From: a phage
Assembly (NCBI GenBank): GCA_030819375.1
Contig: GCA_030819375.1_4699.1
Length of the DNA: 38,456 bases
Direction: 5' to 3' (one strand)
Shown in pieces: positions 45 through 38,434 of the stretch. The translations under genes and the position numbers were made by a program. The notes under the pieces were generated by a model, which saw only the letters and a list, made by a program, of their open reading frames with translations, did not search any database and was not told the DNA's origin. Every line of letters begins with the position of its first letter. Positions within the stretch are counted from its first letter, which is position 1.

Positions 45-170
45 CCTTAGGTTATTCCTTGATGGATAGCTTAGGTTAGCCTTAGGGGGTTGCCTTAGTT
101 AAAGCCTTAGTGCTTCACTTAGTATCAGCTTAGTAGTGTACCTTAGTAAGTCTTAGTGTCTTCTCTTAGT
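45..170. repeat. Array of ~10 CTTAG/CCTTAG short repeats spaced ~11-13 bp (left-end repeat region)
   Basis: CTTAG begins at 46,70,81,94,106,118,129,142,152,165; further scattered copies to ~600; far above chance for a pentamer. Confidence 0.6.
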
Positions 171-400
171 GATTGCACATGTAAGCATGTAAGATGCCAT
201 TAGGTCGCGGTCGGTAGACCGCTAAAGAAGGAGAATAGTAATAAGATGCAGTAGGAGGAACACCAGAAGCCTAGCCAACCTAGCCTATCCTAGCTCTGTA
301 TCTATTGCTCTTCCTTAGTCTCACACGTTAGACAACCTATGTTTATCTTAGTAGTTGTGACATGTATCACATAAATAGTCTATCTTAGTGAAACTTAGTG

Positions 401-429
401 TTGACATAGGCAATCTACAGGTATACATT
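401..429 (+). promoter_or_regulatory. Candidate host sigma70 early promoter
   Basis: TTGACA (401-406), 17-bp spacer, TACATT (424-429); upstream of early genes, analogous to T7 A promoters. Confidence 0.35.
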
Positions 430-552
430 AGCAATCAGTCGGGAGCGACATTAAATACTTAGGGTGAATGATGGAGAGCGTCCTTAACTATCCGGCCTAG
501 CTACTGAAGCCGTTAAACAATGTTAACTAGTGGAAGATGGCGCAAGCATAAC

Positions 553-626
553 CTGCCACGATAAACCAAGGTTAGCGCAACGCTCTTTAACAACTTGCTT
601 AGTGTAACCTATGTATGCCGTGGTTA
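553..626 (+). promoter_or_regulatory. Putative RNase III-type processing hairpin in early transcript (copy 1)
   Basis: Imperfect long inverted repeat (ccacg...cgtgg, aggtta...taacct) enclosing CGCTCTTTAACAA (581-593); same motif recurs at 1208-1220. Confidence 0.3.
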
Positions 627-36037: not shown

Positions 36038-36232
36038 ATGATTAACTCCGAACTGGTAGATAGTGGTGTGAAGCTTGCGCCACCTGCACTCGTATCAGGT
36101 GGGTACTTCCTCGGTATCAGTTGGGATAATTGGGTATTAATAGCAACATTCATTTATACCGTGTTGCAAATTGGGGACTGGTTTTATAATAAGTTCAAGA
36201 TTTGGAGGGAGAAGCGTGAGCGTACACAATAA
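36038..36232 (+). CDS. Holin (class II-like), 64 aa
   Basis: Hydrophobic TM segments plus charged C-terminus (KFKIWREKRERTQ); AAGGAGG RBS; position before terminase as in T7 gene 17.5. Confidence 0.7.
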   Translation: MINSELVDSGVKLAPPALVSGGYFLGISWDNWVLIATFIYTVLQIGDWFYNKFKIWREKRERTQ

Positions 36233-36515
36233 ACATGCAGCTACAGAGGATGAGGTTGGCATTCTGCATGGTGCTATTACCAAAATCTTCAATAAGAAAG
36301 CACAGGCAATACTGGACACTATAGAAGAAGACCCTGATGCAGCATTACATTTAGTGTCTGGTAAGGTTATTGGTGCGATGTGTAAGTGGGTTCTTGATAA
36401 CGGCATTACCGCCACACCTGCTGCACAGCAGGAAGAGTCCAAGTTATCTAAGCGCCTCAAGGCTATCCGAGAGGCATCCAGTGGTAAGATAATTCAATTC
36501 ACTAAGGAGGGTTGA
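36216..36515 (+). CDS. Terminase small subunit (gp18-like), GTG start
   Basis: GGAGGG 6 nt upstream of GTG 36216 (track start 36171 is TTG without RBS); directly upstream of and overlapping the large terminase. Confidence 0.6.
   Translation: MSVHNKHAATEDEVGILHGAITKIFNKKAQAILDTIEEDPDAALHLVSGKVIGAMCKWVLDNGITATPAAQQEESKLSKRLKAIREASSGKIIQFTKEG
36307..36327 (+). promoter_or_regulatory. Promoter-like sequence inside the small terminase gene
   Basis: ACTGGACACTATAGAAGAAG matches the core but lacks the upstream ATTTA; +1 G at 36324. Confidence 0.45.
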
Positions 36516-38410
36516 TGGCTAAGGCAAGAGAATCACAAGCAGAGGCTCTTGCCAGATGGGAGATGCTACAGGAGTTACAGCAGACCTTTCCGTACACATC
36601 GGAAGGTTTACTTCTCTTTGCAGACACAGTTATTCATAACTTGATTGCAGGCAACCCTCACCTGATTCGTATGCAGGCTGATATCTTGAAGTTCCTATTC
36701 TACGGACACAAGTACCGCCTCATCGAAGCGCCTCGTGGTATCGCTAAGACAACACTATCAGCAATCTATACGGTATTCCGTATTATTCATGAACCGCATA
36801 AGCGTATCATGGTTGTGTCCCAAAACGCCAAGCGAGCAGAGGAAATCGCAGGTTGGGTAGTTAAAATCTTCCGTGGCTTAGACTTTCTTGAGTTTATGCT
36901 GCCGGATATCTACGCTGGGGACCGTGCATCCGTTAAGGCGTTTGAGATTCATTACACCCTACGTGGTAGTGATAAGTCTCCTTCTGTATCCTGTTACTCA
37001 ATCGAAGCAGGTATGCAGGGTGCTCGTGCTGATATTATTCTAGCGGATGACGTAGAGTCGATGCAGAATGCTCGTACGGCAGCTGGCCGTGCCTTGCTTG
37101 AGGAACTGACCAAGGAGTTTGAATCTATCAACCAGTTTGGGGATATCATTTACCTTGGTACACCTCAGAACGTAAACTCTATCTACAACAACCTACCTGC
37201 TCGTGGTTACTCTGTTCGTATCTGGACTGCGCGTTACCCTTCAGTAGAGCAAGAGCAATGTTATGGCGACTTCCTTGCACCTATGATTGTGCAGGATATG
37301 AAGGACAACCCAGCATTGCGAACAGGTTATGGTTTGGATGGCGACAGTGGCGCTCCTTGTGCACCTGAAATGTATGATGATGATGTCCTGATTGAGAAGG
37401 AAATATCACAAGGTGCTGCTAAGTTCCAGCTTCAGTTTATGCTTAACACTCGCATGATGGATGCTGACAGATACCCATTACGCCTAAACAATCTAATCTT
37501 CACCTCATTTGGTACAGAGGAAGTCCCTGTGATGCCTACGTGGAGTAATGATTCCATTAACATCATTGGGGATGCACCTAAGTATGGCAACAAGCCTACA
37601 GACTTCATGTTTAGGCCTGTGGCCCGACCATATGAATGGGGTTCTGTCACCCGTAAAATTATGTATATTGACCCTGCGGGTGGTGGTAAGAACGGAGATG
37701 AGACTGGCGTAGCCATCGTATTCCTGCACGGCACATTCATTTATGTGTATCAGTGCTTTGGTGTACCTGGCGGATACCGAGAATCTTCCCTGAATCGCAT
37801 TGTGCAGGCCGCAAAGCAGGCAGGGGTTAAAGAGGTATTCATTGAGAAAAACTTTGGTCATGGCGCGTTTGAGGCCGTTATAAAGCCATACTTTGAACGA
37901 GAATGGCCTGTGACTATTGAAGAGGATTATGCCACTGGTCAGAAAGAACTCCGTATTATTGAGACACTGGAGCCGCTGATGACCGCGCATAGACTCATCT
38001 TCAATGCTGAGATGGTTAAGTCGGACTTCGCTTCAGTACAGAATTACCCTCTGGAATTGCGGATGTCTTATAGTTTGTTCCACCAAATGTCGAACATCAC
38101 TATTGAGAAGAACAGCCTCCGGCATGATGACCGCTTAGACGCCCTGTATGGCGCTGTGCGTCAATTAACTTCTCAGATAGACTATGACGAGGTTACTCGT
38201 ATTAATCGCCTCAGAGCGCAGGAGATGCGCGATTATATACAGGCTATGAATACACCTAAACTTCGTCGGGCTATGCTGTACGGAGATTATGGTGATGAGC
38301 GAAGAACAACCAACACATCCTTAGCAATGCAGCAGAGGGTTTACGGACAGAATTGGAGGAACCGCTCTGGGTCTAGAAATACACTTTCCTCAAGGATTTC
38401 AAGGATTTAG
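36512..38410 (+). CDS. Terminase large subunit (gp19-like), 632 aa
   Basis: ATPase N-terminal domain plus nuclease C-terminal domain by size and position; AAGGAGGG RBS. Confidence 0.95.
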   Translation: MMAKARESQAEALARWEMLQELQQTFPYTSEGLLLFADTVIHNLIAGNPHLIRMQADILKFLFYGHKYRLIEAPRGIAKTTLSAIYTVFRIIHEPHKRIMVVSQNAKRAEEIAGWVVKIFRGLDFLEFMLPDIYAGDRASVKAFEIHYTLRGSDKSPSVSCYSIEAGMQGARADIILADDVESMQNARTAAGRALLEELTKEFESINQFGDIIYLGTPQNVNSIYNNLPARGYSVRIWTARYPSVEQEQCYGDFLAPMIVQDMKDNPALRTGYGLDGDSGAPCAPEMYDDDVLIEKEISQGAAKFQLQFMLNTRMMDADRYPLRLNNLIFTSFGTEEVPVMPTWSNDSINIIGDAPKYGNKPTDFMFRPVARPYEWGSVTRKIMYIDPAGGGKNGDETGVAIVFLHGTFIYVYQCFGVPGGYRESSLNRIVQAAKQAGVKEVFIEKNFGHGAFEAVIKPYFEREWPVTIEEDYATGQKELRIIETLEPLMTAHRLIFNAEMVKSDFASVQNYPLELRMSYSLFHQMSNITIEKNSLRHDDRLDALYGAVRQLTSQIDYDEVTRINRLRAQEMRDYIQAMNTPKLRRAMLYGDYGDERRTTNTSLAMQQRVYGQNWRNRSGSRNTLSSRISRI

Positions 38411-38411
38411 T

Positions 38412-38434
38412 ATTTACTGGACACTATAGGAGGA
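38412..38434 (+). promoter_or_regulatory. Phage-RNAP promoter at the window end
   Basis: ATTTACTGGACACTATAGGAGG; +1 G at 38429; followed by an RBS-like AGGAAG as the window ends. Confidence 0.85.

Follow-up and report, generated by a model that had tools for sequence, protein, structure and literature searches.

A phased array of CTTAG repeats beside the terminal repeat of SP6-like phages and its likeness to the short repeats of T7

The stretch of phage DNA analysed here, hereafter the window, is 38,456 nucleotides long and shares 85-96% nucleotide identity with records of Vectrevirus phages (the group of K1-5, K1E and LL11, SP6-like Molineuxvirinae). This similarity places it in Vectrevirus, that is, in the SP6/K1-5/K1E group of T7-supergroup phages with terminase genes of the T7 type. 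The window carries the K1-5-type phage promoter twelve times. Its first 45 positions (1-45, + strand) are occupied by a pyrimidine-rich spacer which, according to the alignment with K1-5 and to the contig DRR389817_91 described below, connects the terminal repeat and its pause motif with the first CTTAG. The spacer is followed by a phased array of CTTAG pentamers on the same strand (46-169), by two small inverted repeats located right after it (177-222, + strand; z = -3.3) and by six dispersed copies of the pentamer, the last of which lies upstream of the first genes. The right part of the window contains, all on the + strand, the genes for the small terminase subunit of the T7 gp18 family (36216-36515; Pfam PF11123, E = 5e-15) and for the large terminase subunit of the T7 type (36512-38410; Pfam PF22530, E = 2.6e-36), and the last phage-RNA-polymerase promoter of the window, whose rightward transcripts head for the junction (38412-38432).

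The initial annotation of this sequence had noticed about 16 CTTAG motifs in the first 600 nt, and exactly 16 were found, all of them on the + strand between positions 46 and 602, with no - strand copy in positions 1-602. Ten copies form a dense block (starts at 46, 70, 81, 94, 106, 118, 129, 142, 152 and 165) and the other six are scattered beyond it (starts at 314, 347, 384, 394, 458 and 598). The ten copies that had been described between positions 45 and 170 with a spacing of 11-13 bp are present, and the gaps between them measure 24, 11, 13, 12, 12, 11, 13, 10 and 13 bp, so that two of the gaps, those of 10 and 24 bp, fall outside the described range. A degenerate CTTGA (58-62) sits in the wider of these two and brings the array to 11 phased units, ten exact and one degenerate. 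The suggestion that the copies lie roughly one helical turn apart is no more than an approximation. The period of the array is 11.9 bp, that is, about 12 bp, and its phase coherence reaches 0.93-0.94 at 11.75-12.0 bp compared with just 0.20 at 10.5 bp. Successive sites turn about 50 degrees round B-DNA. The extended unit can be written approximately as t-a/g-c-CTTAG-T-g, mostly yCTTAGTg, and the spacers between units are all unique (9 of 9). Tandem Repeats Finder returned for the array one weak 23-nt row with a 73% match.

Outside positions 1-602, the + strand of the window carries 33 CTTAG copies in 37.8 kb. Against this background, finding 16 copies in 602 bp has a Poisson probability of about 1e-18, and finding 10 copies in 126 bp one of about 6e-17. 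Elsewhere in the window, no stretch of 130 bp contained more than three copies on either strand, and 500 dinucleotide shuffles of positions 1-300 did not produce any 5-mer with 10 copies, the top count being seven. When both strands of the whole window are considered, CTTAG occurs 106 times compared with 94 +/- 9 in shuffles. Since this total is ordinary, the signal of the array is purely local. The coding regions contain 28 copies versus 18.8 +/- 4.0 under synonymous-codon shuffling, and no genome-wide avoidance of the pentamer, of the kind that could be taken as the sign of a recognition site, was observed, although a 5-bp core is perhaps too short for this test to be meaningful. This lack of avoidance counts against the binding platform proposed below, for which specificity would need the whole array. 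Three - strand copies located within the terminase genes (36448-36523) were not significant given the number of windows scanned.

Several classes of element could be discarded for the array. The absence of any open reading frame of at least 20 aa in positions 1-300 rules out a coding repeat, and an RNA or single-stranded DNA element was ruled out because an Rfam search of the array region gave no match at E <= 1 and positions 40-175 have no single-strand fold (z = +0.27). The array does not correspond either to a slippage minisatellite, because its spacers all differ and its copy number is steady within each phage group. A stretch that is non-coding, without single-strand fold and without an RNA family fits recognition as duplex DNA.

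The position of the array relative to the genome termini was inferred from an identical contig and from homology. Exact end repeats of 234, 288 and 174 bp are present in the database records of K1-5, K1E and SP6, respectively, and terminal repeats of 250-289 bp have been reported for K1E-like phages (PMC5582158). Position 2 of the window aligns to position 242 of K1-5, just beyond the 234-bp repeat of this phage. A Logan contig, DRR389817_91 (L145; 45,064 bp, circularly permuted), was matched via a 74-aa early protein and is identical to the window across all 4,138 shared bases. It contains a homologue of the K1-5 terminal repeat, about 231 bp long and 94% identical, at window-relative positions -277 to -47, which would locate the physical left end about 277 bp to the left of window position 1. 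The window itself includes neither the terminal repeat nor the right genome end. The array starts about 92 bp to the right of the repeat homologue, and the 46 nt that precede window position 1 in the contig consist of ATCTGTC and a T-rich stretch with a T15 run. The initial annotation had placed the array at the left genome end. This holds in the sense that the array lies just inside the left terminal repeat, but the window does not begin at the physical end.

Beyond the array, the junction carries further CTTAG copies. The terminal-repeat homologue of DRR389817_91 contains three, all in its right half, and three more are located 190-225 bp to the left of the repeat, in an intergenic gap. Among the 14 relatives in which the start of the right-hand repeat could be located, all 14 have a cluster of two to six + strand CTTAG within 450 bp leftward of it, compared with about 0.4 expected. 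This cluster is looser than the array and the positions of its copies vary among relatives. A comparison with the right end had been proposed together with the array, and it reveals equivalent clusters across the junction in the contig and in the 14 relatives. Termini lying far away, with no such repeats at the other end, had been regarded as grounds for abandoning the proposal; neither was found, because by homology the termini are nearby and equivalent repeats do occur at the other end.

The conservation of the array was analysed in SP6-like phages by using as an anchor a conserved block, TAGGTCGCGGTCGGYAGACCGCT, situated to the right of the array (window 201-223). The anchor retrieved 18 IMG/VR loci, which together with the GenBank records gave 22 distinct SP6-like left ends. 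The array is kept in 22 of the 22, and neither its strand nor its register relative to the anchor block varies among them. The left ends of SP6, K1-5 and K1E carry a homologous element in the same register relative to TAGGTCGCGGTCGGYAGACCGCT, and differ in copy number and spacers: the SP6 group has 8 units, the Vectrevirus relatives 10-11. Across all relatives, identity to the window is 95% in CTTAG columns and 72% in spacer columns, and in the SP6 group it is 92% and 46%, respectively (motif range overall, 92-100%); the alignment of repeats favours motif-on-motif matching, but counts and positions measured relative to the anchor nevertheless agree. None of the approximately 120 possible circular shifts of the motif mask reached an equally low entropy. 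This pattern indicates that purifying selection acts on the core and the register and not on the spacers. In K1E and LL11, a local duplication of units was observed, for example CTTAGCTTAG. The two inverted repeats that follow the array were compared in the same relatives: the first (177-190, ACATG-n4-CATGT) exists as two compensatory alleles and the second (207-222, GCGGTC-GGTA-GACCGC) is essentially invariant.

The array is unannotated in the database records retrieved, and those of SP6, K1-5 and K1E mark the terminal repeats alone. The genomes of SP6, K1-5 and K1E were reportedly described by Scholl et al. in 2004, Dobbins et al. in 2004 and Stummeyer et al. in 2006. In the accessible literature no account of CTTAG repeats in SP6-like phages was found; the SP6 and K1-5 genome papers, which lay outside this search, may well have one. 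A scan of IMG/VR for three phased CTTAGT returned, beyond SP6-like phages, mostly perfect tandem or coding repeats. The same scan recovered a few unrelated non-coding arrays and no sign of a wider homologous family. An exact 32-mer taken from the array had no match in IMG/VR or among the JGI metagenome contigs.

The core does not vary, all units point the same way and keep their register, the spacers are free to change and there is no fold; together these features give the array the look of a platform for cooperative protein binding. The array is conserved and probably functional, and the reading favoured here, held with about even confidence, is that it may serve on duplex DNA as a cooperative binding platform for a phage oligomer and, as part of the concatemer junction, shape the ends or packaging of the genome. 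From left to right, the junction would consist of two to six loose CTTAG copies, the terminal repeat of about 231 bp with its three CTTAG, the pause motif, a spacer of about 90 bp and the eleven units. A phage-encoded oligomer would bind the units cooperatively, with one subunit per unit of about 12 bp. Because 12 bp is longer than the helical repeat, the bound sites would spiral round the double helix in the manner of a DNA-wrapped ring or filament. Along with the copies inside the repeat and leftward of it, the complex would mark and shape the junction beside a paused polymerase and would help to determine where or when terminase cuts the boundaries of the repeat. This could take place at initiation or as the motor nears the left end, which in T7 is the end packaged last.

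The presence of a pause site is suggested by the right edge of the repeat. ATCTGTT, which we take to be the class-II pause motif of T7, occupies this edge in the relatives and ATCTGTC occupies it in DRR389817_91, with the array starting 50-90 bp downstream. In every relative that extends far enough, ATCTGTT is found 45-70 bp before the first unit. The ATCTGTC at the repeat edge of the window phage would be a class-II-like pause motif. Class-II pause sites have been described to contain a strictly conserved seven-base motif (bioRxiv 10.64898/2026.02.12.705533). In T7, according to a paper that cites Zhang and Studier 2004, a paused polymerase-lysozyme complex at the junction recruits gp18 and gp19 and thereby starts maturation and packaging (PMC3276506). 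Late transcripts can reach the junction, since no intrinsic terminator was detected on the + strand of DRR389817_91 from about 790 bp before the repeat through to the array. As a counterpoint, the T7 junction is thought to be recognised via the paused RNA polymerase, and a separate terminase site could be unnecessary.

The most plausible candidate for the binder would be the gp18-type small terminase, with or without its large partner, and the small terminase of the window is thus a candidate trans-acting partner of the array. The large subunit would, by its family, be the one that makes the end cuts. As a point against this reading, the small terminase of the gp18 type is not known to bind DNA sequence-specifically in T7 or T3. 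For this type of protein there is no solved structure and no DNA-binding domain detectable by sequence. The small terminase is 76% identical to that of SP6, a phage with the same motif, and 48% identical to that of Era103, whose motif is different. The corresponding values for the large terminase are 78% and 64%; the identities of both subunits merely track phylogeny and are not informative on whether terminase and motif change together.

The six CTTAG copies located among early promoters and a boxA-like sequence (314-602) hint at a role in early infection, instead of the platform or in addition to it. The left end of the phage enters the cell first, and a host or early phage protein bound there might protect the entering end, aid internalisation of the genome or tune the early promoters. 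The distribution of the extra copies in the early control region favours this explanation. The copy at 314-318, beside an imperfect palindrome, GTCTCACACGTTAGAC, is found at +113 from the anchor in SP6, K1E and K1-5. The three copies at 347-398 (starts at 347, 384 and 394) lie close to the -35 elements of a pair of early sigma-70-like promoters (357-386 and 401-429), around these elements or just upstream, and recur in SP6 and in most of the Vectrevirus relatives at +146, +183 and +193 relative to the anchor. The last copy, at 598-602, follows 5 nt after a boxA-like sequence, CGCTCTTTAACAA, and is kept in K1-5 and K1E. The position of the copy at 458-462 is not kept among relatives. The maintenance of positions in the early region between SP6 and Vectrevirus relatives likewise favours an early role. 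In contrast, the terminal repeat and the stretch leading up to its right-hand copy also contain CTTAG, remote from the early promoters, and the dense array itself lies at least 190 bp upstream of these promoters. In addition, T7, SP6 and Era103 use different motifs even though they infect related enterobacteria, which argues against a common host protein, and we know of no E. coli factor whose site matches CTTAG. An early role in place of the junction platform is for these reasons considered unlikely, albeit with an appreciable chance of being correct.

An alternative with a smaller chance of being correct is that the repeats might constitute a lineage-coded address used throughout the family, in which an end-organising protein other than terminase would polymerise into a superhelical filament similar to that of ParR on parC, bridge the three clusters around the junction and thereby loop out the terminal repeat so that it can be duplicated and cut. 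Such an address would be composed of 11-13 out-of-helical-phase units, with CCTAAAG at 13 bp, CTTAG at 12 bp and other cores in Era103 and phiKMV.

It is quite improbable that the array is an element of replication or repeat duplication, acting as a barrier, as a loading site for resynthesis of the repeat or as part of a secondary origin. The CTTAG motif is devoid of the GTC core of T7-type primase sites, which counts against this explanation. In its favour, the array flanks the repeat, and the annotations of T7 and T3 include a phage promoter and a secondary origin (phiOL in T7) just to the right of their arrays. Also in its favour, the concatemer junction holds one repeat and the second copy therefore needs to be synthesised (PMC10438801). 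However, the window phage has no such promoter or origin beside its array: the first phage promoter to the right is at 1769, leaving about 1.7 kb without any, and leftward none further was found in the final 2 kb before the repeat in DRR389817_91.

Very unlikely is a protein-independent effect of DNA shape, by which the TpA-containing units would give the last-packaged and first-ejected end of the genome a superhelical form or bendability suited to the portal, the core or ejection. The regular phasing (12 bp in the window phage and 13 bp in T7), the TpA step in every unit and the location of the array some 370-490 bp inside the physical left end are consistent with it. Against it, the exact pentamer is kept far beyond what bendability needs, a single orientation is used and the 12-13-bp period does not match the helical turn, with the result that the bends would not sum in one plane. 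Finally, a functionless slippage minisatellite tolerated as a neutral by-product in the non-coding end, which could account for the unit duplication CTTAGCTTAG in K1E and LL11 and for the difference in unit number between the SP6 group (8) and the Vectrevirus relatives (10-11), is extremely unlikely, because unique spacers around an invariant core are the reverse of a young slippage array, core and register outlast an SP6/Vectrevirus divergence that has left spacers just 46% identical, and the three-part layout is seen again in T7 and T3, built on other motifs.

The arrays beside the terminal repeat of T7 have been known since its genome was sequenced and, as far as could be established, their function is still unproven. 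No tested function for them was found in the accessible literature; the deletion studies of Chung and Hinkle (1990) and Hashimoto and Fujisawa (1992) were outside this search. A version of the element in the SP6 lineage, with another core and another period, makes the T7 feature comparative and testable group-wide. From a practical point of view, the array is useful for placing genome starts and ends in assemblies of SP6-like phages. It would also be worth retaining in engineered or rebooted therapeutic phages of the SP6/K1 type and in packaging-competent phagemids, unless proven dispensable.

Repeated motifs recognised by proteins are known from other systems. The pac hexamers of P1, the pacL and pacR boxes of SPP1 and the R sites of lambda cosB are terminase sites built of repeated motifs for which binding has been demonstrated. 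Their likeness to the array is that short elements of the same sequence are clustered within 100-200 bp of terminase cuts, which fits cooperative binding by an oligomeric small terminase. They differ in that their small subunits are unrelated in sequence to the gp18 type and in that the array of the window is a putative site; moreover, in contrast to these sites, recognition of the junction in T7 is attributed to the paused RNA polymerase. Another parallel is parC of plasmid R1, in which ten 11-bp repeats are bound by ParR and support a helical nucleoprotein filament. The array shares with parC and with iterons the presence of about ten direct repeats with a period of 11-12 bp, but it is located at a phage genome end without partition or replication-initiator genes, and parC is used here as a working analogy.

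The kind of element described here is already known from T7, and its core and period differ in the SP6 lineage. Dunn and Studier are said to have named the short-repeat regions of T7 SRL and SRR in 1983. The initial annotation had pointed to CCTAAAG as the T7 motif and to an analogous array just inside the terminal repetition; the T7 sequence confirms the motif, and the layout is matched in T7 and T3. In T7, three CCTAAAG copies are found within the 160-bp terminal repetition, eight exact copies (11 when close variants are included) between positions 175 and 338, with a period of 13.0-13.25 bp, and two copies plus CTAAGG variants ahead of the right-hand repetition. ATCTGTT is located exactly at the right edge of the terminal repetition in T7 and likewise in T3, which has the same CCTAAAG motif in the same layout. 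The window phage and T7/T3 belong to one phage supergroup and have terminases of the T7 type. They also have in common the copies in the repeat, a phased same-strand array to its right, a looser cluster to the left of the right-hand repeat and a period that exceeds the helical turn, 13 bp in T7 and 12 bp in the window phage. In contrast, the core is CCTAAAG in T7 and T3 and CTTAG(T) in the window, the likeness being one of position and architecture and not of sequence homology. Further differences are that the copies within the repeat occupy its left part in T7 and its right half in the window phage, and that the latter has extra copies interspersed among the early promoters. According to the same paper, which in this case cites Yamagishi 1985, T3 and T7 differ in packaging specificity (PMC3276506). 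Because both have CCTAAAG in common, the repeats cannot be the sole determinant of specificity, a point that counts against the proposed platform. Outside these lineages, Era103, a more remote relative within the SP6 subfamily, has no CTTAG array and carries other repeats at equivalent sites, including CCTTATGG-like units, and phiKMV has its own short repeats just inside the left repeat. Over the 300 bp that follow the left repeat, a repeated k-mer was in significant excess in six of the six genomes tested, T3 being the weakest. The expectation that the motif would be lineage-specific is thus borne out, with CTTAG in the SP6 group, CCTAAAG in T7 and T3 and other cores elsewhere. In conclusion, the array is, to judge from its position and layout, the SP6-lineage counterpart of the T7 repeats located beside the terminal repetition, and short repeats flanking the terminal repeat appear as an architecture of the whole supergroup whose cores are specific to each lineage.

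The array of eleven CTTAG units at 46-169 is followed directly on its 3′ side by an inverted repeat (177-190), which occurs as two alleles across the relatives. One allele reads CATGC-AA-GCATG and the other TAGCT-AA-AGCTA, so that four stem positions have undergone compensatory change while the flanks around both alleles are identical (ATTGCA...TAAGATGC). The distribution of the alleles disagrees with the phylogeny, as K1-5 carries one and K1E the other, and the window's own copy is a variant with a T-G mismatch. The inverted repeat may be a structure or, alternatively, a dimer-binding site whose specificity can be exchanged. Further to the right, roughly 100 nt of non-coding sequence (201-300) form a block that is almost invariant from SP6 to Vectrevirus. 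Within this block lie the hairpin GCGGTC-GGTA-GACCGC (207-222), an AAGGAG that resembles an SD sequence and precedes ATG-CAG-TAG, and CCTAGC in three copies (270, 279 and 289); an Rfam search of the block returned no match.

Other CTTAG clusters were found beyond the array. In phage LL11 (L028), the closest database relative, an extra ORF is inserted in the loose cluster left of the right-hand terminal repeat, about 990-530 nt ahead of the conserved block that lies right of the array (201-223 in the window). One CTTAG copy precedes the insertion and two follow it, and the inserted ORF, read by eye, is putatively of the HNH type. The densest minus-strand cluster of the window, three CTTAG copies within 76 bp (36448-36523) at the overlap of the small and large terminase genes, was not significant once the number of windows scanned was allowed for. 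Separately, non-coding arrays of five to seven CTTAGT each, with a period of 10-13 bp and variable spacers, were observed in unrelated viral contigs from IMG/VR (L114, L074, L120, L089 and L085).

Sequence upstream of window position 1 is provided by the Logan contig DRR389817_91 (L145), identical to the window over the bases they share. Its positions 2042-2087 (window-relative -46 to -1) carry the pause-type motif as ATCTGTC, whereas relatives have ATCTGTT at the right edge of the terminal repeat. Downstream of this motif, cctttgctcctc is present in duplicate together with 15 consecutive T, and the window begins immediately afterwards; the arrangement may reflect either genuine variation or an artefact of assembly at a genome end. 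The terminal-repeat sequences of T7, SP6, K1-5, K1E, Era103, T3 and phiKMV cannot be aligned except at CCCCATAGGG itself. The first five phages share this sequence, roughly 25-40 nt inside their physical left ends, and T3 and phiKMV (L030 and L032) carry variants of it.

Several further elements recur in the window or among its relatives. A 20-nt palindrome, TTGTCTCACGTGTGAGACAG, is present seven times (316, 6116, 6882, 8293, 9437, 14677 and 31218; repeat families D4 and D5), with 57-nt extended flanks at three of these sites. The first early sigma-70-like promoter (357-386) is overlapped by a perfect CRP-type palindrome, TGTGA-N6-TCACA (356-371), which is found in SP6 and K1E and is absent from K1-5. 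Finally, a boxA-like element, CGCTCTTTAACAA, occurs twice in the window (581-593 and 1208-1220; repeat family D9) and is also found in K1-5, K1E and SP6. About 8 nt downstream of each copy in the window lies a GT-rich sequence, TAGTGT or TTGTGT. Because both copies are located within the early region transcribed by the host polymerase, their presence suggests antitermination of the early transcripts. The element differs by one base from the boxA of E. coli rrn antitermination, TGCTCTTTAACAA.
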